A DNA stretch of 64,000 nt from Carpediemonas membranifera BICM (lineage: Eukaryota; Protista; Fornicata), in the NCBI GenBank assembly GCA_019828565.1, contig JAHDYR010000038.1, positions 326,735-390,734 on the forward strand, in the 5' to 3' direction. Positions 5,480-58,792 of the stretch are shown piece after piece; positions within the stretch are counted from its first letter, which is position 1; each line of letters starts with the position of its first letter. The position numbers were made by a program, and so were the translations under genes. Under the pieces are notes generated by a model. The model worked only from the letters and a program-made list of their open reading frames with translations, searched no databases and was not told the origin of the DNA.

Positions 5480-6155
5480 TCAGCGAGCAGGTTTAGTGGT
5501 GCCGCGGGTCAGGAAGTCGCGACCCTCGCGGTCGCCCCAAACATAAATTCTTCGCGGAGTGAGTGCCATGTTGGCCTCGCCGGCCACTGCGTGCATTGTA
5601 AGACACGGGGGCACGCAGATCCAGACGAACTGCTCTTCGTGAATGGCCGGCACTTGTTGGACGTTTCGCCTGTCGGCCTTGATACCGTAAATGGCGGTGG
5701 GTTGTGCTTCCAAGAGAATATGACTTGTCTAGGCCATTCTTCGCGGCGACGTTCAGCGTGAAGAAGAACTTGCGGCAGAGGAACCAGAGGCATTTGGCCT
5801 CAGGGGCGAGAGCGTTGCGGATCTTGTCGTGTATCGCGTTCTCATCTGGCCACTTCACTCGAGCCTCCTCCAGCACCCTGTCCTCGAGGTCTGGGTCAGC
5901 ACCACTCGCTATCATCACGGCCCACAGCGTGCCTTGGAGCAGGGTGTGCAGGGCGACCGGGAGCTCCTGCCCCTCCGCGAGCTCGACGTTCATGGAGAGC
6001 GGGGGGCCGTCTGCGATGATCGAGCGGGCGCGGTCGAGCAGGGCTTGCGCCGTTGGTTTCAGAGGGGGAATTCTCGAGAGCATGGTTTGCAGGGATTCGA
6101 GTTCTGCGCTGCTCGCTGATGCACTGGTGGTCTCTGCATCGCGCTCTACCGGCAT
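5480..6155 (-). pseudogene. Header-cassette/RCC1-like family member, copy A (frameshifted, truncated)
   Basis: Shared MPVERDAETT header from ATG 6155. The family motif ALTPRRIYVWG appears in another frame (ORF 5480..5713), then stops; no full propeller body. Confidence 0.7.
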
Positions 6156-23300: not shown

Positions 23301-23598
23301 GCCCTCCTCGACCGCGCCCGCTCGATCCTCGCAGACGGCCCCCCGCTCTCCATGAACGTCGAGCTCGCGGAGGGGCAGGAGCTCCCGGTCGCCCTGCACA
23401 CCCTGCTCCAAGGCACGCTGTGGGCCGTGATGATAGCGAGTGCTGACCCAGACCTCGAGGACAGGGTGCTGGAGGAGGCTCGAGTGAAGTGGCCAGATGA
23501 GAACGCGATACACGGCAAGATCCGCAACGCTCTCGCCCCTGAGGCCAAATGCCTCTGGTTCCTCTGCCGCAAGTTCTTCTTCACGCTGAACGTCGCCG
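20344..23598. repeat. Right arm of inverted segmental duplication (partner 5744-8996)
   Basis: Reverse-complement near-identity to the left arm. Confidence 0.95.
20391..22037 (-). CDS. hcp: Hybrid cluster protein, copy 2 (protein identical to copy 1)
   Basis: Identical 548-aa translation; synonymous differences seen (GAT/GAC, CTG/CTA). Confidence 0.97.
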   Translation of the reverse strand: MEIEKLLDNNASACYQCEQARGPGCNTFKGVCSKSPETTAIQDHITWLCMQLAAAAVQDRAKVTDEQLVLFNRAMFTTLTNVNFDDDALMRYAEDLTAELTALGVNGVNKSAAEAVATLKDYGLAHRIHKFGETVAGLRETVVYGIRGAAAYADHVFVLEGLDPVRKETWMNVEAMAELNKDDLSVDALLGLTLKVGEANFGIMAALDKAHNAALGQPSFAPVNTRPVEGKCILITGHDMDDLHKLLEQCEARGVNVFTHGEMIPAHAYPALRKYKCLVGNYGTSWRNQRKEFPLFPGPVLFTTNCIMPPREDYKHRVFTTGRVGFPGLTHVANGEFESVIAAALEAPGYTKADVEAANAESPLLVGAMHAEVLSHAGKVLELISAGKLRHIFFIGGCDGSTPGRNYFSDLAEAIPDDCLILTGACGRFRINRVKDYGDIEGIPRLLDVGQCNDVFSAIKIAVALSEATGLAVNDLPLSLCVSWFEQKAVAVLLTLLHLGIRNIRLGPSLPRFLTPDALAVLADKFALKPTNNKDAKGDLADMLAGEH

Positions 23599-24670
23599 AG
23601 AAGGACGGCGAGAGCTATAAGTGGACTGACTACGAGAGATTCTACCACCACCGCATGTACATGGGCCGACTCTTCATGCTCTACACGAGGCACCACACCG
23701 CCCTCACCAGGGCCACGATGCCCAGGGCCCTCGAGGTCTACAGCAATTACATCACCTATGTTGCCAGGACGCCTAAGGGCCTGTGGGGCTGGGGGAATAG
23801 CTTTGAGGGTCAGCTGGGGTTTCAGTCAGAGTTCTCCGACCCGGCCCGCCTCACCTTCCCCGCCTGCCCCAAGGTCGCCGAGCTCGAGGCCAGCCTGCCC
23901 GCCTGGGAGAAGCACAGCATGGTGACTGCGGTGTCGATGAAGCACGGTCAAGCATTCATCCTCACCCCAGCCGGCACCATCATGGCCGGCAGTGATGCTG
24001 AGTTATTTGTCGGCCCAGTCGAGGAGGAGAACTGGTGCCGCTTCAAGCCAGTCTCTGTGCAAACTGGCTTTGTCCCAGCTCACATCATGCATGACTCGGC
24101 AGTCATCCTCACCATGGGCGATCGGCAGGTGATCAGCGGATGGAACAATTATGGCCAGCTGGGGCTTGGGCACGAGAATGAGATGACTGGGTTTGAGGAG
24201 CTGTCCTTCAGGGTCGACCGGCTTGCTCATTCTGGAAGCGCCTTCCACATATTCCTCAGCGGCGCCAGCTGCTCTTCGCCGGCGAGGTTCCAAAGCCGAT
24301 TGCCCAGTCGGGCCTGCTGCCAGGATACTACGGCAACGAGGAGTGCGTCACAGCCACCCCGCTCCGGTTCCCAGGGAGGGTCAAGGGCTTCTATTGTGAT
24401 AGGTTAGCTCTCATCTGGGTCACAGATGGCCACTCTCACCTGCGCGACGACAACGACTCATATCGCGTGCGCTTGGAGTCGACAGCACTGGGTGTTCGGA
24501 GCGTTGACGATGGAGTTGCTTACTCATTCCGGGACAACTTCGGCCAGTGGTTCAGGGTGACGGGCGTGTCAAGTGGGGTGGCGAAGCTGGTCGAGTGCGA
24601 GGCGCCCGATGATTGTGACATCTTCACAATCCTCCCAGTCGACTTAGACCCGTGGGAAAGCGGCGCCTAG
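23190..24670 (+). pseudogene. Header-cassette/RCC1(BLIP-II)-like family member, copy B, with a 1-nt frameshift near 24260
   Basis: WGWGNSFEGQLG and SGWNNYGQLGLG motifs. LSG|RQLLFAGEVP continues in another frame to the stop at 24670, matching paralogues C and D; could be a sequencing error. Confidence 0.75.
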
Positions 24671-30940: not shown

Positions 30941-31779
30941 ACAACTGCATTTTAAGAACGATACTGATGAATTTGGCTTCGAACCTGGCCAGCTGGGGTG
31001 TCCCATTAGGTCTGCCGGTATCTGTCGCGCTCATATGTCGCTAAGATGGCTGCAAGCGGTCGTCAACTCTGATCAAGAAAGGATCAAAGCAATATCGAGA
31101 CCGTCATTCGGACCGTCCGCAACGACTTACTGGGAATCGAGCACATCTTGCTAGTTTATGTCTCTGCACGATCATGCCTCTGCTGGTTTCATCCATTCTC
31201 GTTAATGGACAGCTCCAGAAATCTGGGGATCCACGGGTATCTCAATGTTCTCCGATAGAATGTCCTCATATCCAATGCCGGTGCCAAGTTCAGGTGATGT
31301 TGGTATTTGTCCCATTCTTCTTTGCTTGTTCAAGCTTGCTCGGTTCTGAAGTACGAGACGCAATCTCCAGCCCAAGATTCGATCTGGATCTAAATTGAGC
31401 TGCAATTGAGAATCGATGTCATGCCCACCGGCGTTCCCTTGCTTCCCGAGCGGCATCGCCAGAACCCGAGTGCTCTGTGGATCGGCGCTTCGGCCGGGAC
31501 TGGGGCAGTCGACGCCCGTCAGCGCGCTGGGATGGCGCAGCCTAGCTGGTGGCAGCACTCTCGGCGCGCGTCGGTGGTCGACGACTCGGCGACTGTGGCC
31601 ACAAGAGGACAGCGCCAGCTTGGATGGGCGAAGCAGCGCCACAACACGATTCCGCGGCATTGGGCGTTGAGCATGCGCTGATATCCGCATTCCGCGTTTC
31701 GACTGTTGCAACCGCCTACATCCCCGGGGACATCCCCTCTCTGCTCCGCCACGCCTACTCCAGGCACTTCAACAAGGTC

Positions 31780-33261
31780 ATGCCGGTAGAGCGCGATGCA
31801 GAGACAACCAGTGCATCAGCGAGCAGCGCAGAACTCGAATCCCTGCAAACCATGCTCTCGAGAATTCCCCCTCTGAAACCAACGGCGCAAGCCCTGCTCG
31901 ACCGCGCCCGCTCGATCCTCGCAGACGGCCCCCCGCTCTCCATGAACGTCGAGCTCGCGGAGGGGCAGGAGCTCCCGGTCGCCCTGCACACCCTGCTCCA
32001 AGGCACGCTGTGGGCCGTGATGATGGCGAGTGGTGCTGACCCAGACCTTCATAACGCGGAAAGAAAGAGCTTCAACAAGGGAGCGAGATGCCTCTGGTTC
32101 CTCTGCCACAAGACCCTATTCTCATGGCAGGCAGCAATGAACGACGCGCAGATAGTCACCTCGCCGAACTCCTACCACTGGCTATACGCCGGCCATTTAC
32201 TGGCACGGCTGTGCTATGACGACGACTCGATCGTAACTGAGGAGTCATACGGCGAGTTCACTTTCCCCCCCGAGTACGCTTCGGCATATGCGCTGGTTCG
32301 AGTTCCGCCAGTTGTACACTTTTACTCATTCCATGATATGCACTTTATAGTCACCGCCAATGGTATTTACGTCGACGGTGTGAGTTACATCATATCGAAC
32401 ATGCGCATGGACGAAACAGCGTTGAAATACCCTACCAGACTCTCATTCCAGCACTGCCCCGCCGTGTGCGAGCACGAGGCCAGCCTGCCACTCTGGCACA
32501 AGGACGGCCTGGTCACAAACATCAGCATTGGCGTCCAAACCATCCTGATCCAGTCACCGGTCGGGCTCATTGCCACGGGCCTGGGTTCCAGTGTCCTGAC
32601 TGGCGTTCGCCGAGCCGGCCCGGGTGGGCTCATTCCCTTCCACCCAGTGGACCTTCCCGACGGCTTTGTTCCTTGTGAGATCATCAACGTGTGGCATGTT
32701 GTGGTTCTGACCTCGGCCTCCGGAGTCCAGCTTATTGGCGGACTGAACAACTCTGGACAGCTTGGGTTGGGTCATCTCGACCCTGTTGTGGGCTTCACAG
32801 AGTCTTCCTTCAGAGTCGACCGGGTTCTCTGCTCCACGGACGCCTGCGCCTTTTATCTGAGCGCGGGCCGGGTGCTGCTCGCCGGGGAAGTCCCGTGGTA
32901 CCTTGCTGAGTCTGCCTTGACCCGTGGCAAGCAGGAGGGCGACCTGTGCACACGACCAGTGGCCCTAGACTTTCCCCAGACTCCAAAGGGCGTTCTTGTT
33001 GACTCGAGTCGCATCGTTTGGGTCAAAAACTGCTCGACTGTGGTTGAAGACTGCGAGTCTGGCCTGTATCACTGCTACGAGATCCCGTTTGATGTACACC
33101 GCGTCAACTCCGGGAGAAGCTTCAATGTGATGGATGCGGCCGGTACATGGTTCTCAGTGAACGGTGTCACTGACGGGCTAGCGGATGTCGCCAATGCCAA
33201 CAGTCCCGATGTCGACACAGTTCGGGAGATGACCTGGTTTGGATACGCTGAGGGCCGGTGA
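31780..33261 (+). CDS. Header-cassette/RCC1-like family member, copy C (intact)
   Basis: MPVERDAETT header, GGLNNSGQLGLG, LPDGFVP, FRVDRV; upstream cassette near-identical from ~31307. Confidence 0.8.
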   Translation: MPVERDAETTSASASSAELESLQTMLSRIPPLKPTAQALLDRARSILADGPPLSMNVELAEGQELPVALHTLLQGTLWAVMMASGADPDLHNAERKSFNKGARCLWFLCHKTLFSWQAAMNDAQIVTSPNSYHWLYAGHLLARLCYDDDSIVTEESYGEFTFPPEYASAYALVRVPPVVHFYSFHDMHFIVTANGIYVDGVSYIISNMRMDETALKYPTRLSFQHCPAVCEHEASLPLWHKDGLVTNISIGVQTILIQSPVGLIATGLGSSVLTGVRRAGPGGLIPFHPVDLPDGFVPCEIINVWHVVVLTSASGVQLIGGLNNSGQLGLGHLDPVVGFTESSFRVDRVLCSTDACAFYLSAGRVLLAGEVPWYLAESALTRGKQEGDLCTRPVALDFPQTPKGVLVDSSRIVWVKNCSTVVEDCESGLYHCYEIPFDVHRVNSGRSFNVMDAAGTWFSVNGVTDGLADVANANSPDVDTVREMTWFGYAEGR

Positions 33262-38253: not shown

Positions 38254-39627
38254 TTATAAGCTGATTACGTTCAAAACTGGGCTGGAAGGCCCCGCACACC
38301 TGGCGATGCCTCCCCTGGTACGCCGGTACCACTGGCCCTCGCCGTCTCTAACATGGTCGCTGTAGTCGAACTGGATGGCAGTAAAGCCCTCGATCTCCGC
38401 CAGACCGCACCGGAACGACCAGAGCCGAGTCGACTCGTCGGACACGATAATGATCACATTGGTCGAAATATAAACACGCGAGACACTATCAGGGACGTCC
38501 AGAGGCATGGCTGGCGTGACTATCTCCCTTTCCCCGTGACCACCGAGGAGACGCGCTCGGTAGATAGACAAAGGCACCTCACCGCTGAACAGAAGCTGTC
38601 GGCCGCTAAGGAAGATGTTAAACTCAGGGGTGGCCGCGATAACTCGGTTCGCCCAGAACGGCATGTCGATCATGCCCTCCATCGTCTCAGCATGCCCGAG
38701 ACCCATCTGACCATTGTCATTTCGCCCTGAAAACAGCTGTCGGTCGCCCATACTCATGATTGTGATGTCTGCCACATTGATGATATGATCTGGGACAAAC
38801 CCATTGGGCATCGGGATGCGCTGGAAGCGGTTGCAGACAGCGTTTGGGCCTACGAACCACACAGCACCCTTCCCAGCCACGAGAGTGCCCAGCGCGGTGA
38901 CTATAAACGTGCGGCTGTGGCCCATCGTCACGTGCTTCACGAGTGTGTGCTTCTGCCAGGGGGCCAGGCCATCTTCAAAAGCGGCCAACTTGGGCTCTGC
39001 GCTGAACTTTACCCTGGCTGGGAAGCGTAAGTGCTGCGGGCTGACCCCTAGCTGGCCGTCCTTATTCATCCCGTAGCCCCATACACCACGGGGAGTGATG
39101 GCTAGCGCTGAGTAGTGATCTGTCACAACGGAGAGGGCCCTAGGCATCTGGGCGTGGTAGAAGTGAGTGTCACGGATGGCGTGCATCTTGAAAAGGAGGC
39201 CTGCATACTCTTTGTGGGCGAACTTATCGGATTGGTGGAAGCTCGCGCCGTCCTTCTCGGCGATGACAAAACAGAAGTAGAACTTTCGGCACATGAACCA
39301 GATATACTTGCTTTCTGGCCGTAACTGAAGTCTGAAAGCGGGCGAAAGGCTGTCCTCGAGGTCTGGGTTGGCTCCACTCGCCATCATCACGGCCCACAGC
39401 GTGCCTTGGAGCAGGGTGTGCAGGGCGACCGGGAGCTCCTGCCCCTCCGCGAGCTCGACGTTCATGGAGAGCGGGGGGCCGTCTGCGAGGATCGAGCGGG
39501 CGCGGTCGAGCAGGGCTTGCGCCGTTGGTTTCAGAGGGGGAATTCTCGAGAGCATGGTTTGCAGGGATTCGAGTTCTGCGCTGCTCGCTGATGCACTGGT
39601 GGTCTCTGCATCGCGCTCTACCGGCAT
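38254..39627 (-). CDS. Header-cassette/RCC1-like family member, copy D (intact)
   Basis: Shared header; VWGYGMNKDGQLG and SGRNDNGQMGLG; upstream cassette near-identical to 39988. Confidence 0.8.
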   Translation of the reverse strand: MPVERDAETTSASASSAELESLQTMLSRIPPLKPTAQALLDRARSILADGPPLSMNVELAEGQELPVALHTLLQGTLWAVMMASGANPDLEDSLSPAFRLQLRPESKYIWFMCRKFYFCFVIAEKDGASFHQSDKFAHKEYAGLLFKMHAIRDTHFYHAQMPRALSVVTDHYSALAITPRGVWGYGMNKDGQLGVSPQHLRFPARVKFSAEPKLAAFEDGLAPWQKHTLVKHVTMGHSRTFIVTALGTLVAGKGAVWFVGPNAVCNRFQRIPMPNGFVPDHIINVADITIMSMGDRQLFSGRNDNGQMGLGHAETMEGMIDMPFWANRVIAATPEFNIFLSGRQLLFSGEVPLSIYRARLLGGHGEREIVTPAMPLDVPDSVSRVYISTNVIIIVSDESTRLWSFRCGLAEIEGFTAIQFDYSDHVRDGEGQWYRRTRGGIARCAGPSSPVLNVISL

Positions 39628-40293
39628 GACCTTGTTGAAGTGCCTGGAGTAGGCGTGGCGGAGCAGAGAGGGGATGTCCCCGGGGATGTAGGCGGTTGCA
39701 ACAGTCGAAACGCGGAATGCGGATATCAGCGCATGCTCAACGCCCAATGCCGCGGAATCGTGTTGTGGCGCTGCTTCGCCCATCCAAGCTGGCGCTGTCC
39801 TCTTGTGGCCACAGTCGCCGAGTCGTCGACCACCGACGCGCGCCGAGAGTGCTGCCACCAGCTAGGCTGCGCCATCCCAGCGCGCTGACGGGCGTCGACT
39901 GCCCCAGTCCCGGCCGAAGCGCCGATCCACAGAGCACTCGGGTTCTGGCGATGCCGCTCGGGAAGCAAGGGAACGCCGGTGGGCATGATCCTGTTTCTCT
40001 ATTTAGGTAAGATGGCATTCAGTAAAGCAGGGTCGCCACGTCAGTCTCGAGTCGACCATGGATCCCCCAGGATCGGGACCCATCCCCATGCCTTGGCGTT
40101 GGACAGGACGAAAGCTGAGTGATGAAACTAGCAATTCACGATAGTATTGAGTACAATGGAACATAAAGTAGTGGTACCAAGACTGTACTTTGCCAATATC
40201 GCCCCACCTCCTTGGTGATACACTGCCGTCCACCATTCGGATGCATGCCGAGAGAACAACGCCCAGTCTACCGCATTTTAACCGTGGGTCGAA

Positions 40294-41220: not shown

Positions 41221-42720
41221 TTGGTGTATTGGGGTTATAGTTGGGAAGACGGGCTGGAGGTCTTGGATTTCTGAAAGCACTGGCTTGATACTGTGCATCC
41301 GTCATGAGGCCGCAATCCAAGATGTTCTGTGCAGCAGTCTTGTCTCTGTGGGAGAGATTGAGTTAAGTGGATGTAGGATTGGAATTGAGGCGTTGCTGTC
41401 TGTACCATGGAGCACCTTGACAATTCGGGTTGTGGCATCGCATCGTGCGCCTCGTGTAGCGAGTTCTACGGAACCTCGCGCGGCAGAAGGGGCAGACGAG
41501 TGAGGTTCGGAACTCGTTAGTCATCCGCACTTCAGCAGTGATGTTGAAAGCTCTCATGATGTGTGGTAGTGATTTTGCAAAGCGACCATACGGCGCGCAT
41601 GGATGCACCCGACGGGGCGTCTTGAATCTAGCGCTTCCGTAGAAGACAACCAGCCTGGTGGGGGCTGCCCGGGGAGGGGCAATACCGCGAGGGAGTCGCC
41701 GAGGAGTCCATCCTAGGGTGCGAGCAAGCAGCTCCCCAGCTCTGTGGAAGTGCTTTTGACGCAAGATGTGGTTCGTCAGGCGCACTCTGCGGAAGCTCTT
41801 GACCATCCCAGCGTCGAATATTTCCTGCTCGTGGAGGAGCACAAACCTAATCGAGTTTTGTAGACTATCTAGATTTGTACTTTTGAATGACGCAGGAGTC
41901 ATGTCGAACGCGAAGCTGGGGGTCTTGGTGTACCCACACTTCGGGACCACACCGGAGCTGGTGGTGCCATCTGGGTGGCGGATGAAGAATCCACCCAGAG
42001 CCCGAGCACCCGGGTCGAAACCCATGAGGTGGGCATCGGGGTCTGGCGCGGGGCGAGCATCTGCGTCATCCACACCCAGACGCTCCCGAACCTTTCGCTT
42101 CATCGTCGGGTTGCCACTGGCACGTCTGTTGACGTATGGCAGAGCACCAACTTGGACCGTGAGGTCCACGGCGACCCCATCTGTCTTGACAGACAGCACC
42201 CGACGGATGTTCGGAGGAAGAGCCTCCAGCTGTTCTCGGGTCATGCGCTCAGTGGCATGATGCTCCGGGTCGACCCCAAGTTGGGCAAGCCAAGCCGGGT
42301 TCAGCACGTTGAGAGAACAGGGAACGTGCATGAACCCGGGGCGGACCGGAGCCATCGGGACAAGCGGAACAAGCTTGGGGCCAGCCAGCGGCTTGTCACC
42401 CGGAAGAGGCGGATGGGCGGTGTTGAATGCCGCAACCATATCCGTGAGCTCTCCCAGAGCCGCGGAGATCCGCCAGACGCAGGGCAGCGTGAGTAGAACG
42501 CCCTCGTCGACTCGTCCCGGAGTTGAGATCTTTGCAAGGTGCTCATCAACGATCGCCTTGACAGCGCGTTGTTCGGTGCGCAACCGGGTGATGTCGTCCC
42601 GGGGCACGTCGTATCGTCGTCGGATCAGGTGCAGTTTATGTCAGAGGCGTTCCCATCGCCTTACAAGCGCTCAATAGCAGCGATGTGGTACGCAAGATCA
42701 CCCCTGTCCACTGCGCGCAT
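41174..42720 (-). pseudogene. Fanzor (eukaryotic TnpB-like RNA-guided nuclease), decayed
   Basis: SVKTDGV; RuvC-I GFDPG; VFYG plus shifted RuvC-II NEFRTS; zinc finger CPFC...CHNPNC; in-frame TAA at 41363-41365, then RuvC-III HRDKTAAQNI and stop at 41174. Broken 5' frame upstream of 42607. Confidence 0.85.
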
Positions 42721-45278: not shown

Positions 45279-45558
45279 CTCAGCGTCGTGGCTGTCAACA
45301 TGCTCAAGCGGGGTGACTCCGACCGCGATCGACCCACCCGGCCCGAAGGCTGCTCATGGGAGGACGAGGGCCGTGCCGTCGCCGAGTATTCAGGGCCGCT
45401 GCACGACATATACGCTCCTCCCTGCTCTGCTTTGACCCCGTTACTGCCAACGAGATCAAGATGATGAAGAGCGTCAAAACAATCGTCCGTTCCGGTCTCT
45501 TCCAGCTCTTCCTTAACGGACAAGGGAGGGTCGCACTTGTCGCCCCAACCATCCCCAT

Positions 45559-45611
45559 TGTCCCAATCAATTGATTAAACCTCTTTCGCTAGCTGTTCTA
45601 TCCATACCACA
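45559..45611 (+). repeat. 5' LTR (53 bp)
   Basis: TGTCCCAATCAATTGATTAAACC...CCATACCACA, identical to 57144-57196. Confidence 0.95.
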
Positions 45612-45623
45612 GTGATCACTGTC

Positions 45624-47459
45624 ATGGTTTTAGTCAGCAACAGCCGTTTAGACGAGTATCGTCTTCATGTTGCAAGCAAAAAGCAGCCGTCTAGCATCCT
45701 CTTTTTCCTCGGGAGCGAGAAACTAGCCGAAATCCGCGCGGCGTTCATCCCGACAACGAGATTCCCAACATTCGAGGATTTCCAATGCTTCTTTGAGACA
45801 GAGATCCGTCCTCCCATTCATAAGCCTTCCGAGCAGAATGAACCCGAGAAGAACGACGACGACAAATCGGCCGAGGAGCTCAGCGCTCTCCTGGCCAAGC
45901 TCAAGGATATAGACACCCAAGCGGCCTCGATCGCTTCAGACGAGCTGAAGCAGGCCTTCATCACCGCAGCCCTCAAGGCGGTCAGTCCGCCACCGACGGC
46001 CCCAGACACCTCGACCAACGCCTCAGAGCGCCTCTCGAGGGAGGAGCTCCGCGAGCGGGCGGACCTCTTGCTCACCTACACCGCGTACTTCGAGCTGACA
46101 CCCGCCCAGCGGGCCAACCCAGCCGCTCGCGCGGCGGCGATCCTGGAAAGGACCACGCTCACAGGTGGAGACATCACCTCTATGCAGAAGATGTTCCTAG
46201 CTTTCGGCAAGCACTGTCGCCAGCTGAACCCCAAGTTCCCGACAGAAGAAAACGGTTACACGCCCCTCACCGAGAAGAGGCTGATATCCACGCTTTTCCG
46301 CGTGCTGACCCGCGGTTTTGACGTCACCGAAGCCGCCCTCGCCTTCGAGGATTTCGCCGACGGCGCCACCACCATCGATGACGTCCAGCACCGCATCCTG
46401 GCTTTGCCAACTAACTCCGATGGGACGATCGTCACGCCTTGGTCCTTCTGCCAGAGGACCTCCGGTCCCATGGCAGGCGCCAAGGTCCCCGCTACACCGG
46501 GCAACGGCCGCAAGACCTGCCGCGTCCACGGTCCCGGCGGCCACTCTACTGAAGAGTGCCGGCTGCTGAAGCGCCAGAGTCAGGCTAACAGAGCCACACC
46601 GGCGGGCCGCCAACCTCAAGATCCCCGCCAGGGCCAGGCCTCTCAACGCACACCACACCAAGCCTCAGCCGCCCAGCAGAACCAGTCACGCCAGCCGCAG
46701 GCAGTTGGTCCCCAACGACAGGCCGCTGGACAACCACAGCAGCCCCAGCAACCATCGACGTCGAAGGGTCCTTGGCAGTTCAGGCAGAACCCCAAGCAGG
46801 CCACACCATTCACACCGACACCCCCCAACAAGCCCCAACAAGGCAGCGTTCAGAACGTAGAGCATGCCGAGCACGCTTACTCGCCGGGCCGGCTTCTCCG
46901 GATTCCAGTGACGATAGGTGACACGCTTATCTCAGCGACGGTCGACCCTGGCTCCGTAGTGTCCACCATCTCGCTGGACCTCGCCAACGCACTCGCCCAG
47001 TTTGGCAGGAGGGGCCCCGACATGGTCCAGCTGACGGGCCCTGACGACCAAGGTCTCCAGCAACACGGCACCTTCGAGACAACGCTGGTCGCGGACCGCT
47101 TGGGCGACCGCCGAACGATCATCGATTGGCCCCTGCACGTCATCAGCGGCAGGGCCGATAAGGTCCTCATCGGCTCGGATATATTGTGGTTCTTAGGCCT
47201 CATGTCCGACGAGGGCATCATGCTTCGCCTCCGCCCGCAAGTTCACGACGGCGAGGACGAAGGCCTCCCCGACGACCAGACCGATGACTTCCACGCAGTC
47301 AACAACATCGTCAGCGACGACGCGGGCCCACTTGGCACACGCATCGCAAGCGACTTCCCGCTCAAAGCCGAGATGGCTGATGTCATCCGCCGGCACGCAC
47401 CGGTATTCGGCGAGCTGCACCCTGACGGCGCCCAGATCGCCGCCGCAACGATTGACATC
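45624..47459 (+). CDS. gag: Gypsy gag-protease (5' part of polyprotein)
   Basis: Zinc knuckle CRVHGPGGHSTEEC, Q-rich linker, aspartic protease ATVDPGS...VLIGSD; joins 54564 in frame once the LINE is removed (AATIDI|VPGAP). Confidence 0.85.
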
Positions 47460-47473
47460 ATATTTTCCGCACC

Positions 47474-50400
47474 ATGGGCAAAAGTAGTTCTGGCTACAGA
47501 GGCCCAATCTTAGCGAAAGACACTGGTCCGCAACCACAAAGTACCACTGCTGCTCAAAGCAGTATCGCCGACCAACGCTTCCTGACGAGGAAGCACCTCA
47601 AATATGTTTCATCCGCCCCTCCTGTCCTCAAAAGACAACTACTAGCAGGCATTGCCTTTATTGGGGACCCCGTAATCATCCATCCCTTCAAAACTGAGCT
47701 TGCAACACACTCATCGACGGGCAATTTCGTCTCGGTGGCAATCCCAAACCTAAAACGGGACAACGCCCGCTATAAGCGGGCTAAGGATGCCTGTAATGAC
47801 CTACTCCAAGATGCTGAGCACCTTGCAGCTGCATTTGGGCTCTCCATCCGGGAAGGTATCCTCAAACTCTTTCCCCTCATTGCCTATGATCTTGTCCACA
47901 CGGTTGGAACGCTTAAGGCTGCCCTAATCCACTGCAGGTTCACGGGACTCCCCCCAGCTAGCAGCATGGACTGGAGCAAGTTCGCAGATTTCATCTCCGC
48001 CAGATGCCCTACAGTGTTAGACCAACGGAACGATCCTTGGCCTCCAACCATATCCACTGTCCCGAACTCTCCGAGCCTGACATGGCAGGCAGTCGGTCAA
48101 AGAGAGCCTCTTGGTCCCCGCATCGCTCACTCCGGCCGGCCCGGCCCCATTGTATCTCCGGATGGTCTCAACCTCACGCCGTTCATGGGCCTCGAGGTAA
48201 TCCACTTACTGTATGGCGCCTCTCCCGTGTTGGGAGGACATGCGATGACTGAGCTTTATGCCGAATGGGGTGGAGCCACAGCGGCCGACCTTCAGTCTTC
48301 CTTATCGAATACCTTATCAGACAGCCTTATCTCTCCCATTCGCCGGAAGGCCTATCCAGTCGATGACTCTACTATATCCATAAGTTCCTGTTCAAACTCT
48401 GATGTTGAGCTCGCAAGCCCGATCCCTGTTAGCGTGGAAGAGGTTGCGCGGCAGATTCGGAAAGAAATATCGTCTTGCGAAGAGAACAGCATTTATCCAT
48501 CATCCCCGATCGTAGCTGAGGAGCCTAACGCCCGTTGGGGCCCTCTCATGAGCATCCCAGTTCACGCCGACGGCAACTGTGGCCTTCACTCACTTGCTGT
48601 CTCTCTGGGTATGACGGGCCTGACGAGACGAGAAGCCGTGTCGAAACTTGCCTCCGCCATCCAGAATGGTACAGTGGATCTTAACTCCTCGTGGAGATCC
48701 ACGGTGCGCACTTTAACCACACACACCACCGCTAGCGACATTGGTAGTGCCTTCCTATCCACCACAGACCTCCGCAATATTGCATCGCTCTTTGGAAAAA
48801 ATGTGCTTATTGCTCATCGATATGATGCCAACACAGTCTCAGTAACCATCCCAGCATTATCCGAGTTCTCTACACTTCCTCTCAATATTGACGCGCTCAA
48901 AACGATGCTCAAAACCGATTACATCCTCATTAGACTGAGTGCTCTGCACTTCACGCCTCTTTTTCCGTCTGTGAGGAGCGCAGAAGCAAGGCGCCTGCAA
49001 TATGCTGAATATCGTCCAAGAAGAGCCCCCTCTAGTGTGGCTCGCAACAACATCGCCGCTGAAGGCCTCGATAGCGCCCCCTCTAGTGTGGCCCGCAACA
49101 ACATCGCCGCTGAAGGCCTCGATAGCGCCCCCTCTAGTGTGGCTCGCAACAACATCGTCGCTGGAGGCCTCGATAGCGCCCCCTCTAGTGTGGCCCGCAA
49201 CAACATCGCCGCTGGAGGCCTCGATAGCGCCCCCTCTAGTGTGGCCCGCAACAACATCGCCGCTGAAGGCCTCGATAGCGCCCCCTCTAGTGTGGCCCGC
49301 AACAACCGTGATGGCGTCCATGGCGCTCTCATAGGCTTGTCTGGCAAGAGAGAGGGTCCTGTTTCTCATATCCTAGTGGTCGACTTTGAAGGACTAGGAA
49401 CTGCCGTAGACCGCAGAGCCACCAAACAGAGTCGCGTCTCATATCCCGTAGAGGCCGGCGCCACACTCCTAGCCCGCGTCAAGGATCCTGAAACGGGGAT
49501 AATGATGTGGGACGTCGCAGGGGTCCACTGGGGCGGCTTAGAAGTTGATATCCCAGCGCAGTTAATGCAGACAGCTTTATACCAAGCGGCAGTTGTTCAT
49601 GGGTGTCCTCCCATGAGCTTCAGAGTACACCCCGACCACCCCGGGATCTCATTCCCCAGCCCGACCGACTGGCTTCACCACCTCACGGTCATAGTGAGCT
49701 CCCTCCCGAACTGCATCATGGTCGCCAAAGACCCGAGACTTGAGAACTCCGTCCTAGAGTCATGGGTCTCGGAAAGCGATGCCCCCTTCCTTGACAAGGT
49801 CTATGACATAAGTGATCTAGAGTCCATAGACAAAAGATCCTTTGGGCATATCCATGACTACTGCCGTTCACCCGAGTTCTCTGAGGCGATGTCGATAGCC
49901 CAATGTCTCACAATGGTGAAGTGCCCCTGCCCGTACCACATTGGAACAGATCCAGGCTACCATTGTGCTCTCAGTGACACTGTAGCTTTCGCGGCGGTAC
50001 TGCACACAGTCTCATGTCTCGACCGAACATCTAGGGGAGCTATCACATCCACGTACTCTGAAATCACTGATGCATGGAGGAAAGACTTGGATGTCCTCAT
50101 CGGCAACTGGTCCTCTCTCCTGCCCGACCTGGCCGTGCTACTACTCCAAGACCTCCACCTGCCAACGCTTGAGGAGCTGCACCACATCCTCAAGGAGTAC
50201 GTAATAGCACCTAAGGGTGGCTGCTCCTTCCCCACAGGTGATAGGGCCAGACAGGCTATGACGTGCCGTCAATTTATTGCAGTGCGGAGCCCAGCTCGGC
50301 GAGGGTGGGAATGGTTTGATCCTCTTGCCAAGATGATAGCGGTGGCGGATGCGGCAGGCATAGTCCCTCCAAACAGCCTAGAACAGCCATTCATCAGGAT

Positions 50401-53400
50401 AGCGACGGTGAATAACGACAGCTCCTTCAGCAATCAGTTGACGGCTCAGCAAGTTTACTGGGAGTGCCCTCCTCACCGAGACCTACCGCAATCTGCTGCA
50501 GAGCTTCTGGCTCTCAACGTTCCTCCCTCGGCAGACAACTCCAAAGGAGTAGTCAAGAGGTCCTACAGAGCGCCGGATCATTGGTTTCTAGTCCCGAGAA
50601 TCCCCAACAAGCCAGTGCGAGGGCTCCGCAAAGTCAGACTGAGAGGGCCCATGACTCGAGGAGACATGGATGCCCTCATACAGAAGGCAGAAACAGCATG
50701 GGTCAGCGAAGCGTGGGACCTTTCTCCGGTGTTCAAAGCTCTCCAGAGTGCCCGAGCTCACGACGGTAACTGGAGTAAGGTTGAGCCACCGGCTTCTTCC
50801 ACGCCAGCTCCAAGCTTAGCCACGCGAGTCTCGCCTGCGACCTTCAGGAATCAGAGAGGGCGAAGTCAAGCAGGTAGACGACCAGTAAATGGTCACCTCT
50901 ACTCGTGGAATTGCACATCACTCAACATCACCAAGATGACTCTTGCTCTAGTACAAGACGTGGACATCATGGCCATTCAGGAGCTATGGTGGTGGGCCCA
51001 GTCCCCGGAGCTGCCCACAACGAATGACAAGGTCCTGCTATACCACGGAGTGATCAAGTCAGAGTCCGAGACAAAGCATCTAGGCGTAGGCATCATGCTG
51101 AGGAAGGAATTAGCTGAGCTCTGCACATACGTCGAGAACCAACCCCACTCTCCAAGGTTGATTCAAGCTGACCTAGGCTGCGTGTTTGTAACAGCTGGCA
51201 AACTGAAGGTCCGTGTCATGTCCATCTATAGTCCATGCACGGGAGCACAAGCCAAGAAAGAGTTCCACACTCTACTGTCCTCCGAGGTGAAGAAAGCTAT
51301 TGAGCAAGGGCTCCAAGTTCTTGTCATGGGAGACTTCAACACGAACCTACTAGATCCATCGACGCTGTGGGCTACCACCCTAAAGGAGTGTGGCTTGAGA
51401 CTGGTAGTGCCCGACGGCCCGACCTTCATGGACAGAGTAATTGATGGCATCGCAGCAACACCTAAGCTGGCTGATCTCATCAAGAAGCCGCTCACAGTAT
51501 CCCTTGAACCCAAAAGGACACAGAGCGGTTGTAGCAAGATCAGGCATAACGGGTTACTTTCGCACGAGGAGCAAGGCAACAGCAGTCCTCAACGAAAGAC
51601 ATGTGGCTAACGTACTTGAATGCAGCAAGGATCATCGAAAGGCGAGGACTCTCCTGAGGAACATCAGCCACCTTGATGTCGACCAAGCCTTTCAAAGCCT
51701 GACGTCGACTATCAACCGATGGGCGTTGGTGGACACTGCGGCCTCACATGAAGTGAGAGAAGTCGAGAGAGCAGAAGACTACGACCACTGGTTTGTCGCC
51801 GGAGAGCAGATCGGTATTTCCCCTGAACGGCTCTATGAGCTCATCATTGAGGATCATCGCCACCAACATCAGCTCAAGGAGAGGACGAGCAGAGGCCCCC
51901 AAAGCTCTCGTGTGCTCTGAGCTATCATCAGCAATGCTATCAGTAGCGTTAGCATCCTCGGAGAGCCACGCCCACTCAACACTCAAAGCCTACCATGCCC
52001 GAGCCAAGCGAGTCTCTGAGAGCATGGATGTCATGTCCCCTGAATTCTTTAGATACGTCCATTGGAAGCTTTTTGAAGGGGCAGGCCAGAGTGTCTGGTC
52101 TTCGCAGAGACCTGGAAGGCTTACTCAGAGGACCCGGCCTTCCTGCTACCACCACAGTAGGAGGCAGAGTGATCACCAACCGAGAAGAAGTAGCCAAGGC
52201 CTTCGAGGAGTGGTATGCGTCAGTATCATATGTGGCAGGAGCAGTAGAACCATCCATCTCTCGCCCCCGATATAGAGCTCGAAATCACGGACACTCTCCT
52301 GGAAGGGGCTCTCAAATCTGCCAAGAATAGATCAGCCCCAGGCAGTGATGGACTAACCCCGGCAATTTTCAAATATTGCCCAGTCCTCAAGGAGGCGCTC
52401 AAGACTCTGCTACAGAAGTGCATTGACCAACTCAAGACCCCAGCAGAGTGGCATACCGCCGTGGTAATTCCATTGAAAAAGCCCGGCTCTACTAGCGATG
52501 CTCCTGTGGCGTTCAGACCTATCTCCCTACTTTCCACAGCCCACAAGGTGCTCGGCACAATGATGATCCGCACGATTGACCGAGACAACCCTCTTCCCCC
52601 TGAACAATACGGTGCAAGGCCGGGTGTTTCATCGGTTGATGCACTATGGGCTATTGAGCACGCGAGACGTGGGTTCAAAGCGACCCACATTGGGACTCTG
52701 GACGTGGCTAAGGCCTTTGACCGTGTCCCGAGGAGAGATGCATTGGACTCGTTGAGGGGGAACAGAAGGGCCATTGAGATGTTGAAGGAGATGCATTTGC
52801 ACACAAGGATCTCTATGCGAGGTAGCAGCACTAGCGCCGCTACCAACACAGGAGTACGGCAAGGATGCACCACTGCTCCCTTCATCTTCACAAGATACCT
52901 TGCGGAAGTCCCTCACATCATTGCAAGCTTAACCGCTCTAGGGAAGGAAGCAATTGAGAAGCTTCCTCCCGACATAGAGACCCTGAGACGAGTGGCAGCA
53001 AGGCCGTGCGTTCCCTGGATTGTCACAGTCCTGTTCGTTGATGACATTACAATAGTAGCTCCCTCCCTTAAGTGGTTGGAGGCAGCACTTACGGCGGCAT
53101 GGACATGCATGCTAGCGCTATCCTTGGAGCCCAACGATAAGACCACCTATGTCTCAGAGGACGACACCCCCTCCCTCACCATCCATGGCAATCCAGTCAT
53201 TAAGAGAGACGCGGTCAAGCTCCTAGGGGTCCTCTTCGATACGTCCCGAGACTTCTCCACCCAGAATAGGACTATGGGCGAAAGGATAGACAGAGAGCTA
53301 CGACTACTGAGAGCTAGCGGCGTGATGCACTCCAAGTTCTGTCCTCGCATTGTAGAGGTCTACACCCTCCCCAAGCTGCTGTACGGGTGGAGCGTCTGGG

Positions 53401-54177
53401 CTAATCATAAGGCTGTCTCCCAGGTAGGCAAGCTTGCATCGGCAGCCCTAAGGATCAGCCCAACTGCATCGGAGGCGAAGTACCTGGAGCTAGGCTGGCT
53501 GCATCCAGAGGCAATGCTCCTGCTGGACAGATTCAAGCAAGGGGGTGAGATGGGCGAGAATCCATCCGGGCAAGGATCTCCCAGACTGCATTGCTGAGGC
53601 ACAAGGCAGCCTTGGCCTGTCCCACTCCGACAGCCTTGACCTAGCAGCCTGTCGAGCAGCCCAGCTCTCTCACGACATAATCTGCCGTGGTAACAAAGTG
53701 GCTGTCAGGAGATACGTCACGGAGTCGGCACTCACCCGCCCTTTTACCCGCTCTAACTACCCGGCCAGGCAGCCATACCTCGACCATCTAACGGCTGGGC
53801 CAGCGAAGCGCCTCGCGATGCTACGGCTATCGTGTCTACCAATGCCAACGAGAGGGGCTCTTCCTGACGCGTGGCAGCCGGTCAGGGGAATCCTACAGGA
53901 CCTGAAGGATGAACCGGAAGCCGCCGCAGCTCTTGAGGCATGTCCTCTCTGTCAGGGTGAGGCCATCGCCGCGGCTGTGATTGAGATCCTGACGTCCCCT
54001 ACCAAGACCTTAGCAGTGCTGAGATCCAGGACGTGGGTTGTCCTGAACCAGACCCACTTGGCTAAGTGCGACCACTTCAAGATTAACCCCATCCTCCTTT
54101 TCAAGGACCCCCTGACCCTGAGCAGGCGTGACGACGCCAAGCTCACACATATGTTGAGTGTACTTTGTGACGCGTGA
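47474..54177 (+). CDS. LINE polyprotein: OTU-like protease, 17-aa repeats, DEDDh/MAEL-like exonuclease, AP endonuclease, RT, CCHC-like C-terminus; five frameshifts after ~51545
   Basis: ADGNCGLHS...LHF; VVDFEG..PVE..HG..CPYH..HCALSD; SWNC, IQE, GVG, SIYSP, GDFN; APGSDG, FRPISLL, QYGARPG, LDVAKAFD, GVRQG, LFVDD, KLLGV; CPLC..H..C. Confidence 0.88.
49025..49306 (+). repeat. 51-bp coding minisatellite (APSSVARNNIAAEGLDS), about 5.5 copies
   Basis: Units start at 49025, 49076, 49127, 49178, 49229 and 49280. Confidence 0.95.
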
Positions 54178-54563
54178 CTGGTAGGTTCCCTCGCTTACAT
54201 AGGAAAACGCCACCGTCCTCCCCGGTCTCAGGACCTCCTCGATCATCGTCCTGAGGGAGCCCCATCGGGCTCGGAGCACAGAGTCCCGCAGCGCCAAGAG
54301 CTGGAAGTTGTGAGCTGGCCGACCCGCGTGGGTCATCTTTTTACCCTTCTTCGAAGGGGTTTTAGGCCCTCCTCTCCCTGCAGCTTCAGAACAGTACTCT
54401 TGGGCGCCGCAGCTCTGGCTTCCAATGTTATGAGAACCGTTGCCCTCCTGCGGCTGATCACCGCTCGTCTGGCTCGGGTTGTGGCCAGTGCCTGGAGGTG
54501 GACACCCCGGCACTGTATCAAAAAATAAACTCAAAAACTCAAAAACTCAAAACGATTGACATC

Positions 54564-57159
54564 GTGCCAGGCGCACCCCTACCCAACCATGCCCCTCGAC
54601 CGCTCACGGCATCCACCGCCGAAAGAGTGCACGAGATTATCGACGACATGGACAGACAGGGCATCGTACGCGATTCCTACAGCCACGTGGCATCCGCAGC
54701 CGTCATCGTAGTGAAGAAGTCAAGCGAGTTACGACTTTGCGCCGACTACCGCGAGCTTAACTCGGTAACTACACCAGACAGGTTCCCCCTCGCAGATATC
54801 CGCACCTTCACCAACGACTTCATCGGTGCCAAGTACTTCTTCGCTTGTGACCTCCGGTCAGGTTTTCATCAAATGCCAGTACGCGAAGACCACAAGTACC
54901 TCACCGCTATAACGCTGCCAGGCCGGTTCAAAGAGTACAACTTTGCACCCTTTGGTCTTCGTAACCTACCGTCACAGTTCCAGCGGGCCATCCAGGCAAT
55001 CCTTGCCCCTGTGCGCGCCGACGGTACGAAGAACTACATCGATGACATCTTTGGTCGAGCCAAGACACCTCAGGAGCTTCTAGACCACGTCGACCGCCTA
55101 CTCTGTATCGCAGAGGAACGCAACGTCCGCCTCCGCGGCGACAAGTGTGTCTTCGGGGCGACGTCTATCGAGATCCTCGGCGATATCGTCGATGGCAAGG
55201 GCCGCCGCATGAGCCCTACTCGTGTCAGATCCATGCAGGACCTCGCCGCACCTCACTCGGTCAAGGACCTACGCATGATCATCGGTATGTTCACATACCT
55301 CAGTGACTATATCCCCGACTGCCAGACACGCCTCAAGCCGCTCCAGGCCTTGGTCAGCAAGGTCCCACCCTACACCTTCAACGACTGGGACGACACGCTT
55401 CAGGCTCTGTTTGATCAGCTCAAGCAGGCCGTGACAGACGAAGAGGTCCTCGCCCATCCGGACCAGAGCAGGCCCTGGCGCCTCGAGACCGACGCCTCTC
55501 TCGAAGGCATCGGCGGTGTCTTACTGCAGCTTGACTCGGACAACACATGGCGCGTCGTGTCATTCTTCTCAAAGGTCTTCAACGACACACAGTCGCGTTG
55601 GTGCACGTACGACCAGGAGCTGTTCGCGATCATCTACTGCCTCACTCGGCCTGACCTCTCGCCCATCTTTAGAGTCCACCAGGACCTGACGATCTGGACG
55701 GACCACCGCAACTTGGTCTACCTGCACTCCAAGGCTGGCCAGGAAAACCGTAAGCACCTCCGCTGGCTGCTTATGATCCAAGAGTTCGAGTTCGTCATCA
55801 GACACATCGCAGGCGCGCAGAACACACTGGCCGACGCACTCAGTCGATACAACCCGCAGGCCACAGTCACGCAGGTCAACAACGTCTCAGAGGCCGAGCT
55901 CGACGAAGACGCCAAGCGCAAGATCGTGCAAGAAGCTCACCGATACCACGAGGGCGAGCAGGCCACCATCAGGAACGTCCGCCAGCTTGGGCACGATTGG
56001 CCAGGCCTCCACTCCGACGTGCACGCAGTCGTGTCAACCTGCGTGTACTGCGCTAAGGCACGCCTCTCCGCTTTCATTAAGACCACAACGCAGTCTTCTC
56101 TGCGCGACCGACCCTTCCAGACCATCGCTGTAGACACCATGGGTCCTTTCCCTGTCGACTCCGAGGGTTTCAGATACATCGTGGTGGCAACCGACATGTT
56201 TACCCGCTTCACGGAGCTCATCCCCACAGCTTCCAACAACGCGACGACGGTCGGGCTGGCACTTTGGTCCATCATCGGACGCTACGGTGTGCCTCGCGAG
56301 TTCCTTTCGGACAACGGCCCCGAGTACCGCAATCGGATGATAGAAGCTTTCCTTGATCGCTTGCAGGTCACGTACCACCGGACAATCCCTTTCCACCCTC
56401 AGTCAAACGGCCTGGCCGAGAGACGCAACCAGGAAGGTAAGGAAGGTCAAGCGACACTTACGTGTGCTCTGTCTGATGTTTGACCGTTACGACGCCTGGG
56501 CCTCCGTGGTCCCATACGTCCAGTACATCCTGAACACTACGGTCCACTCCGTCACCGGCGTCGAACCCATTGCTCTCTTGATGGGCAAGCATGCCTCCGC
56601 TCGCGACTTCACGATCGCACCCAAGGAGGAGGGTAGAGTTCATACTCCCCTGGACGACATAGCCTCCTACATCGACGCGCTCACCGAGCACCTCCAGATC
56701 CTCGCCGACCAGGCCCTCAACCGCCAGCAGGCAATGACAAGGACCGCAGAGCCGACGCCCCCGATCGAGCCGGGCACTCTGGTCCTTCGTAAGAACGAGA
56801 GCCCCACGAAGCTACACGGCCACCGCGGCCCATTCCGCATCACAGCCGCCGACGGTTACGCAGCGGAGATCACGCCGCTCACTGGCGGCAAGAGCCGCCG
56901 GGTCCACCTGAGCCAGTTAATCCGCATCTGCCAAGGCCCCCTCAGCGACGCCGAACTGTTGCGCATCGCGGCTACCGACGACGAGGAGTATTACGTCGAG
57001 AAAGTCCTAGAGGTCGACGACGAGACTGGCGACCTCCTCATTAAGTGGCTCGGCTTCCCTGAGGCTAAGGCCACGTGGGAGGGTCCCAACTCTGACGCCG
57101 CCCGCACGTCCGTCGTGCGCCGTCACCTCGAGGAGAGGGGTAGTGTCCCAATCAATTGA
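54564..57159 (+). CDS. pol: Gypsy pol: RT, RNase H, integrase, chromodomain (one frameshift near 56435)
   Basis: LRLCADYRELN, DLRSGFHQ, PFGL, YIDD; ETDAS, ELFAI, TDHRNL; H..H..CVYC, VDTMGP, SDNG, ERRN; YYVEKVL..IKWLGF..ATWE. Confidence 0.95.
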
Positions 57160-57196
57160 TTAAACCTCTTTCGCTAGCTGTTCTATCCATACCACA
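57144..57196 (+). repeat. 3' LTR (53 bp)
   Basis: Identical to the 5' LTR; contains the pol stop codon. Confidence 0.95.
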
Positions 57197-57201
57197 CCCA
57201 T

Positions 57202-57634
57202 CACCATGCGTGTGTGCGCATGGCTGGGTCATGACGGCATACTAGGGCATACAATAACGCCAGGGACATTCGACAGGCAGCTATTCTACGACTCCTTTAT
57301 CGCCAATGTGTATTACAAAATGAATCCATGGCCTGGGCCACGGTCGATCTTAATGCTCGACAACGCCTCAATTCACCACTTTCCTCAGTTGCAGCAATGT
57401 ATCGACAACATTGGCGCCAAGATGATCTTTCTGCCCCCATACAGTCCGCACCTTAATCCCATAGAGGTCATGTTCTCCATCATCAAGTCTCGCATACAGA
57501 GAGATCAAGCTGCTTTTGCTCAAGCTCCAGCATCCACACTGAGCAGGCTCTTCGCTGAAGTGACCAACAGTCAATCACACCTCTTCAGCTCCCATGGCTA
57601 CCACGACGGGCAGCTGGACATACACTTCAGATAA
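57202..57634 (+). pseudogene. IS630/Tc1-mariner DDE transposase, C-terminal fragment
   Basis: ILMLDNASIH and LPPYSPHLNPIE..FS..K; first catalytic Asp and HTH not evident. Confidence 0.85.
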
Positions 57635-57643
57635 ACGCTTTAT

Positions 57644-58375
57644 TCAGTCTTCCTGGTGCTCGTAGTCGGGAATGTTGAGGCTGTTGGGCATGATAGGCGG
57701 CGGGGGACGACTGACCGGAGCTGGAGTTGTCTGGGCGCGTCTCAGTAGTGCTCGGACTTCAGTTACACGCTCATAGGGGACTGGAACGAGGACATACGCA
57801 TCCAAGTCGAAGTTGGGAGGCCGTCTAGGATGCTGAGGTGTCTCTGCAAGCTCTTGGCTCGCTTGTGGCCGCTCGTATTGAACGCCAGCCGGTGGATCAA
57901 GGGCAGTGACTCCGTCAACTCCTGACGCCAGGGAGTGAGCCCAACCCATCAGCTGAGATTCGGTCAGGCCAGGATTGGCAGCACGAAGGATCTCGCGGGC
58001 TTCATGCAAAGCCTCTCGGCCGACGAGTGCGTTTCGCGGTTGGTGGACAGGTTGAGATGAAGCTGTGGTCTTGTTGGGGTCAGCAGTCCACACATATGCC
58101 TCAGGCTTGCTGCATCTGGTGAACTTGCTCCAGGCAGCCATAGTAATGTCTTCTAAGAAGACCTTATCATTGGGAAGCTTGTAACGTACCTGAATTCTCT
58201 GCTTTGCAACGCTCTCTGCAATGTTATACCCCTTTTCGCTGACCAAGTTGCGAATATCACGCACGAAGGCTTCCATAGCTGTCCACTCTTGCTTCATCTG
58301 CACTATAAACGTGCAAAGTACCTTGTTACGAGACTTCTTCACCTTAATAGTAACATCCGTTCCCTCATCGTCCAT
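57644..58375 (-). CDS. Hypothetical protein convergent with the transposase fragment
   Basis: 243-aa ORF with ATG start, stop 9 bp from the transposase stop; AT-rich upstream region. Confidence 0.55.
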   Translation of the reverse strand: MDDEGTDVTIKVKKSRNKVLCTFIVQMKQEWTAMEAFVRDIRNLVSEKGYNIAESVAKQRIQVRYKLPNDKVFLEDITMAAWSKFTRCSKPEAYVWTADPNKTTASSQPVHQPRNALVGREALHEAREILRAANPGLTESQLMGWAHSLASGVDGVTALDPPAGVQYERPQASQELAETPQHPRRPPNFDLDAYVLVPVPYERVTEVRALLRRAQTTPAPVSRPPPPIMPNSLNIPDYEHQED

Positions 58376-58792
58376 CGCTCAATTCACCTGTTTTCAGCAC
58401 TCAAAACACAGTGTTTGATTGCTTAATTCAGGACTCAAAATAAACAAGCTCGTGGTTGATTTAAGGTGAAAAAAGCAATATAAAGAAAAGTTTACTATGA
58501 AGGATCGCGTCGGTCTACGGTCTGGAGAGCAGAGCCAGGTCGAGTTCACGAGTTAACGGCTTCGTGATTGTCACGTCTACAGTTGCCTTGACTGTACCAA
58601 GGCACCTGGCGGTGTAGCACGTGGCTAGGAACTTTTGATTAGAGTGTTAAACACGCTATTTATGAAGATACCGGTCCTGTACTGCTATATATGTAAATAC
58701 CTGGGTATATGGCGGAGTTGTTGGCCCATCTCTTTCGCCAATTTGAACGATGATCTCATCAAAGTCAAGAATGGTCAACCCACAACCCGGAT

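Follow-up and report, generated by a model that had tools for sequence, protein, structure and literature searches.

A stretch of 64,000 nucleotides from contig JAHDYR010000038.1 of Carpediemonas membranifera BICM (positions 326,735 to 390,734 of the forward strand; hereafter the window) carries a genuine Ty3/gypsy retrotransposon (Metaviridae) bounded by two identical long terminal repeats (LTRs) of only 53 bp. The host is a free-living anaerobic metamonad protist. The element has TG...CA repeats, a 5-bp target-site duplication, a polypurine tract (PPT) and the order gag, protease (PR), reverse transcriptase (RT), RNase H (RH) and integrase (IN), with the catalytic motifs of these enzymes. 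It is a copy, no longer intact, of a chromodomain element with a single frame, and it probably belongs to a lineage whose LTRs are normally about 50–80 bp long.

Boundaries, terminal repeats and size

The two repeats are identical at 53 of 53 positions, start with TG, end with CA and cannot be extended outwards by exact matches (Table 1). The duplication CCCAT adjoins them on both outer sides. The 3' LTR is preceded by the purine run GAGGAGAGGGG plus TAG, and the first gag ATG (45624) is located 12 nt past the 5' LTR. The pol frame crosses the PPT and ends in the 3' LTR (...EERGSVPIN*, stop codon at 57157-57159). Apart from the limit of the exact match outwards, these features had been pointed out in an earlier note made from the sequence alone, and all of them were recovered. 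Once a nested long interspersed nuclear element (LINE) is removed, the element measures 4,534 bp (11,638 - 7,104) and is about 98% coding, with 65 non-coding bases 5' of the ATG and 37 bases 3' of the stop. An alternative LTR of 61 bp was rejected: it includes three adjacent mismatches, and the target duplication agrees with 53 bp. Pieces of 12 bases taken from the LTR have no further copy anywhere in the window.

A cycle of retroviral replication uses a single RNA as the template for both LTRs. Therefore, a deletion occurring after insertion cannot trim both LTRs alike, and the ends of this copy already measured 53 bp at its reverse transcription and integration. Its insertion age is poorly constrained by the identity of such short LTRs, about 5% divergence still being compatible with it by simple arithmetic.

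The repeats might also be viewed as an artefact, resulting from chance or from misassembly of nested repeats. Three mobile elements are nested in this region, and the left flank gives no significant alignment (best E 0.2) with the missing N-terminal part of the transposase fragment found on the right. Such an origin is nevertheless highly improbable, given the concordance of the TG...CA ends, the exact 5-bp duplication, the PPT and the exact 13-bp duplication flanking the LINE, and the colinearity of gag-pol with two intact relatives.

Table 1. Positions of the features of the element and its right flank in the window
Feature	Position	Strand	Remarks
Left target-site duplication, CCCAT	45554..45558	+	Sequence read
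5' LTR, 53 bp, TG...CA	45559..45611	+	GC 40% vs about 60% in coding parts
12-bp palindrome in LTR	45565..45576; again 57150-57161		12 bp or more reached by 0.6% of 20,000 LTR base shuffles
14-bp perfect palindrome over LTR end and 12-nt leader, at the expected tRNA primer site	45609..45622		May act in dimerisation or priming
gag with an atypical knuckle (C-x2-H-x5-H-x4-C), then aspartic protease; 612 amino acids to the LINE	45624..47459	+	Asp_protease_2 E 0.022, below cut-off
Nested LINE with endonuclease, RT and several breaks of the frame	47460..54550	+	13-bp duplication 47447-47459 / 54551-54563
RT (YIDD), RNase H, integrase zinc finger, DDE core	54564..56436	+	Continues the gag frame beyond the LINE
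Short tandem duplication shifting the integrase frame	56428..56454 (approximate limits)	+	Relatives continuous here
Integrase C-terminus, GPF motif, HP1-like chromodomain (about 56971-57087)	56446..57159	+	Crosses PPT, stops in 3' LTR
Polypurine tract, coding as well	57130..57143	+	Sequence read
3' LTR, same 53 bp as 5' LTR	57144..57196	+	Direct comparison
Right target-site duplication, CCCAT	57197..57201	+	Sequence read
DDE_3 (IS630/Tc1-type) transposase fragment, from profile position about 40	57203..57634	+	Profile match; best match from C. membranifera

Coding content and later lesions

The RT, RNase H, integrase zinc finger and integrase core domains match Pfam profiles above the cut-off, the protease and the chromodomain (Chromo, E 0.0033) below it. 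Downstream of the integrase, a GPY/F motif is followed by the C-terminal chromodomain, which matches CBX5/HP1 in a PDB comparison (E 8.9e-6) with its Y, W and F residues aligned with Y, W and F of CBX5. We take these three residues to be the methyl-lysine aromatic cage of a group I chromodomain.

Two later lesions affect the element. The nested LINE, bordered by a duplication that is exact over 13 bp, interrupts the gypsy pol while keeping the reading frame in register. Furthermore, the integrase frameshift falls right after the last catalytic residue, at a place where the frame is continuous in all five relatives compared. Owing to these two lesions, the copy is very likely dead. The earlier note had described the element without its LINE as about 4.5 kb and almost entirely one gag-pol frame; the size and the coding density hold, while the frame is broken by the integrase frameshift.

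The LINE was recognized by its endonuclease (E 3.4e-7) and RT (E 6.7e-21) domains in Pfam. Its first frame encodes 1,384 amino acids with the endonuclease at the end, the RT being encoded by a later frame. This first frame also includes a HADGNCGLHS motif that presumably recalls OTU-type cysteine proteases, with no Pfam match. The LINE carries a 51-bp tandem repeat at 48971-49357 and a short A-rich repeat tail.

Relatives and phylogenetic position

Searches with the pol protein returned 73 and 148 proteins, none of them near-identical. The best relatives, P0088 and P0089, are single-frame gag-pol proteins of 1,517 and 1,534 amino acids showing 59% identity. The gag-PR part gave 13 matches among 1.84 billion representatives, with a best identity of 30-38%. 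Another protein of C. membranifera, KAG9390150.1 (P0109), is 34% identical. Compared as proteins only, it resembles the element, as do P0088 and P0089, by a single gag-pol frame (1,335-1,534 amino acids) and a chromodomain-like end.

Quick trees were built from RT-RH sequences, one of them keeping 162 of 197 proteins on the basis of RT-RH coverage. They include the element in a clade of 8 rows (100% support in the SH-like approximate likelihood-ratio test, SH-aLRT) nested in a clade of 13 rows (100%), outside of which KAG9390150.1 falls. The neighbours also carry chromodomains; among them are an Andalucia element and a further element of C. membranifera. Fungal Tf2 and plant chromoviruses form a separate branch (99%) that excludes the element. 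The grouping of all chromodomain rows on one side of the tree has a support of 10, with a reference set that was not curated, a value that speaks neither for nor against a single lineage. According to these trees, the place of the element is in a protist Ty3/gypsy clade, as yet without a name and with an HP1-like chromodomain, which is distinct from Tf2 and the chromoviruses of plants. The earlier note had called it a chromovirus and had suggested an RT-IN phylogeny. Since the trees separate it from Tf2 and plant chromoviruses, this name suits it only in the loose sense of domain content (a chromodomain after the integrase), a common descent being no more than possible.

Short LTRs as a probable trait of the lineage

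Scans of 96 related loci flagged two of them, of which L085 belongs weakly and L001 alone clearly to the clade. In L001, a metagenome contig of 3,952 bp, the pol of one related gypsy element is interrupted by two further relatives, both present as 3' ends. The relative on the minus strand is 39-49% identical to the RH-IN parts of the window element. Its chromodomain is followed by a purine tract and a putative LTR of 50 bp starting with TG and ending with CA, beyond which the interrupted pol resumes in register with its relatives; here also, the frame enters the LTR. The more distant relative on the plus strand ends with a purine tract and a putative LTR of 81 bp, also TG...CA, and splits the conserved G-T-D-L-L motif of the protease end mid-codon. 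The 50-bp LTR holds a 5-base tandem repeat.

Moreover, all five proteins of the closest clade whose C-termini are intact (P0088, P0089, P0211, P0090 and P0091) end with GGSV or GRMW plus 3-7 residues, the peptide encoded by a purine tract and then TG. The two remaining relatives of the 8-row clade end earlier, being cut short, and this ending is absent from P0093, P0094 and P0096 of the sister clade. In the window element, 20 residues separate the gag start from a K-x-P motif, within the range of about 12-32 found in five relatives; hence no deletion of the 5' part or of the primer site is evident. Because the putative LTRs of L001 have 50 and 81 bp and the C-terminal pattern is found in five of five proteins, a short LTR shared by the lineage is likelier than a one-off deletion. 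The minimised LTR put forward by the earlier note is real as regards the 53-bp repeats, and a probable lineage trait as regards the L001 3' ends, whose lengths are inferred.

Several points weigh against short LTRs as a trait of the lineage. A single copy was analysed, with neither a second copy nor a solo LTR in the window. The LTRs of L001 are known from 3' ends alone, with no 5' LTR or pair of target-site duplications, and both come from one 3,952-bp contig that is possibly misassembled. The C-terminal peptides indicate an overlap of pol and LTR, not an LTR length. Finally, the 50-bp LTR of L001 contains neither TAAA nor the 12-bp palindrome.

Alternatively, the copy could be a deletion derivative of a family with longer LTRs: a parent or a reverse-transcription event would have lost most of U3, and the shortened element would have moved once by means of a read-through transcript. 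This would be in line with evidence from one copy only, with the two lesions of this copy and with the lack of any near-identical protein in the searches (best 59% for pol and 30-38% for gag-PR). We consider it unlikely, given that a deletion after insertion could not have shortened both LTRs identically, that a close relative in L001 has an inferred 50-bp 3' LTR and that the overlap of the pol stop with ATTAAA matches host gene ends.

Two other sources of LTR lengths were rejected. The difference between contig and open reading frame (ORF) sizes in 12 relatives (52-458 nt) was discarded because assembler k-mer trimming gives equal numbers. LTR-like repeats in other loci (83 loci scanned, those below 3.5 kb skipped) belonged to distant elements or were assembly overlaps. 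An LTR pattern scan of viral contigs gave no match.

Probable layout of the LTR

The hexamer ATTAAA occupies bases 16-21 of the LTR (45574-45579). In the 3' LTR (57159-57164), it overlaps the TGA stop codon of pol. A TAAA near or overlapping the stop was also observed in 16 of the 26 ORFs of the window (from the stop to +45, some ORF ends being possibly wrong) vs 6.6% of random windows, and is a candidate poly(A) signal of the host. Two counts temper this parallel. TAAA was found on the opposite strand of 7 of the 26 ORF ends, so part of the signal comes from AT-rich spacers or convergent genes, and the depletion of TAAA on the coding strand of the element does not reach significance (no occurrence vs 2.7 expected, P 0.06). 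AUUAAA is a poly(A) hexamer of trichomonads, in a study whose coverage does not extend to Carpediemonas, and in compact genomes the stop codon typically overlaps the signal, with cleavage 8-20 nt downstream (PMC11529991; here and below, published work is cited from the accessible parts of the texts). The ATTAAA of the LTR is thus likely to be the poly(A) signal of the element, a reading that gains support from the host gene ends.

The earlier note had also drawn attention to a 12-bp palindrome overlapping ATTAAA. Both are present as placed. A role for the palindrome is not upheld, and the 50-bp relative has no such palindrome. The 81-bp LTR of L001 has a hairpin of 9 bp (z -2.0) and the 50-bp LTR has none.

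Only about 15 bases of the LTR lie upstream of ATTAAA, and the LTR has no TATA box as read from its sequence. CCA and TCA at LTR bases 5-11, which match 6 of 7 positions of the initiator motif, may weakly be taken as initiator-like sites. A bacterial promoter scan, a method ill-suited to a eukaryote, found nothing, and there was no match in Rfam. The LTR could work in the way of a host gene boundary, in compact form. With a transcription start at an initiator-like site around bases 7-11, U3 would be reduced to about 10 bases and would hold little beyond the integrase site. The ATTAAA would direct cleavage near base 30-41, the R/U5 border, so that R would span about 20-30 bases and U5 about 12-23 bases. 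Downstream or flanking DNA would provide the strength of the promoter. Since an R region is required, the transcription start must lie upstream of the R/U5 border.

The short LTR of the whole family could instead be promoterless, consisting of R, the poly(A) signal and the integrase ends, with transcription from a flanking host promoter or an internal one. The 15 or so bases before ATTAAA, the lack of a TATA box and the gene density of the surrounding host window are compatible with this view. It is improbable in our opinion: a start downstream of the LTR would yield no R region, and the LTR does contain the initiator-like CCA and TCA at bases 5-11, weak as this match is. It departs from the compact gene boundary in the promoter step alone.

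Priming of reverse transcription

Directly after the 5' LTR, the TGG of a tRNA primer site is absent and GTG is found instead; the window contains no tRNA gene. TGG is usual but not universal at this place in Ty3/gypsy elements (PMC5006619). Complementarity of the Tf1 type between LTR and leader reaches at best 6 nt beside the LTR; a stretch of 9 nt, G-U pairs included, occurs no closer than 17 nt downstream, within gag. The polypyrimidine tract that follows the 5' LTR in Skipper is also absent. What lies at this site is the 14-bp palindrome, centred four bases past the LTR end. A palindrome of at least 14 bp is rare by chance, being obtained in 0.1% of shuffles, and three such palindromes occur in the window, this one having been spotted post hoc. 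With z -1.07 and -0.82, the predicted folding of the 5' RNA is no better than that of shuffles, which speaks against its use. In Ty1 and in retroviruses, candidate sites of dimerisation include palindromes (PMC3592414). Priming might proceed without a tRNA 3' end, the palindrome pairing two genomes or folding back to supply the primer; this would be its likeliest use, albeit at low odds.

Taken together, and as a tentative proposal that is more doubtful than the short LTRs themselves, the element would represent an undescribed autonomous gypsy lineage with LTRs of about 50 bp, the shortest of any coding element. Its U3 would amount to the integrase end, its pol stop would coincide with the poly(A) signal, and its priming would be tRNA-free and palindrome-based, differing from that of Tf1 and Skipper.

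Comparison with known elements and significance

Skipper-1 and DGLT-A from dictyostelids are likewise protist Ty3/gypsy elements with a GPY/F motif. Skipper-1 shares with the window element a group I chromodomain and the lack of both a TGG primer site and Tf1-type complementarity, and DGLT-A shares its single ORF. They differ from it by LTRs of 163-601 bp (Table 1 of PMC5006619) and, for Skipper, by a polypyrimidine tract rather than a palindrome after the LTR, a comparison made by description since Skipper is absent from the RT-RH trees (PMC5006619). Tf1/Sushi elements and plant chromoviruses have the same domain order and C-terminal chromodomain. The Tf1/Sushi group also lacks a tRNA site (PMC6317226) but relies on a self-priming complementarity not seen here. 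SMART/FRetro129 and TRIMs resemble the element by very short TG...CA repeats and 5-bp duplications (PMC3281118, 10.64898/2026.03.01.708851, PMC10741241), with LTRs of 85 bp for SMART (PMC3281118) and a median of 72 bp for beet TRIM-01 (10.64898/2026.03.01.708851). They are, however, non-coding and non-autonomous plant elements, whereas the element described here has a 4.4-kb gag-pol and a shorter LTR.

In the accessible literature, we found no report of an LTR element for Carpediemonas and no coding element with LTRs near 50 bp, though Repbase, subscription journals, supplements and the host genome paper may hold shorter cases. The accessible parts of PMC3601003, PMC11358816, PMC3286476, PMC11787283, PMC8767320, PMC6934838 and 10.64898/2026.05.21.726589 contain nothing on such LTRs in coding elements. 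The default minimum LTR length of LTR_Finder is 100 bp (PMC10741241). Hence, such elements would be missed, and the LTR content of compact protist genomes would be underestimated. At 53 bp, the LTR is about half as long as the usual minimum for detection, and relatives of the element probably have similarly tiny ends. If the proposed layout is true, it indicates the least that an LTR can hold in nature and offers a 65-base test piece that combines promoter, poly(A), strand transfer, integration and priming signals. The absence of a tRNA site adds a further case of non-canonical priming in protist gypsy elements, which is an open question (PMC5006619).

Flanks and other features of the window

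The DDE_3 fragment that adjoins the element on the right lacks its N-terminal part. It is arranged tail to tail with an unknown ORF of 243 amino acids (57203-58378 for both), the two stops being 9 bases apart with a TAAA at each. An insertion of the gypsy element into an intact transposase gene was considered, the frame being open across the duplication, but is not demonstrated, as the left flank fails to align.

On the minus strand, an ORF of 358 amino acids (41363-42439) has a weak Cas12f1-like TNB match (E 0.096) and is a possible TnpB/Fanzor-like gene. Two hybrid-cluster-protein genes with identical translations are found in inverted orientation (7303-8949 on the plus strand and 20391-22037 on the minus strand). 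Of three window proteins sought in a protein collection, two are present, and one falls in a 90% cluster together with five hybrid-cluster proteins from C. membranifera. Four other genes (5493-6311, 23034-24407, 31624-33261 and 38254-39783) have near-identical N-terminal parts of 135 residues and divergent C-termini, and may constitute a mobile or recombining family.

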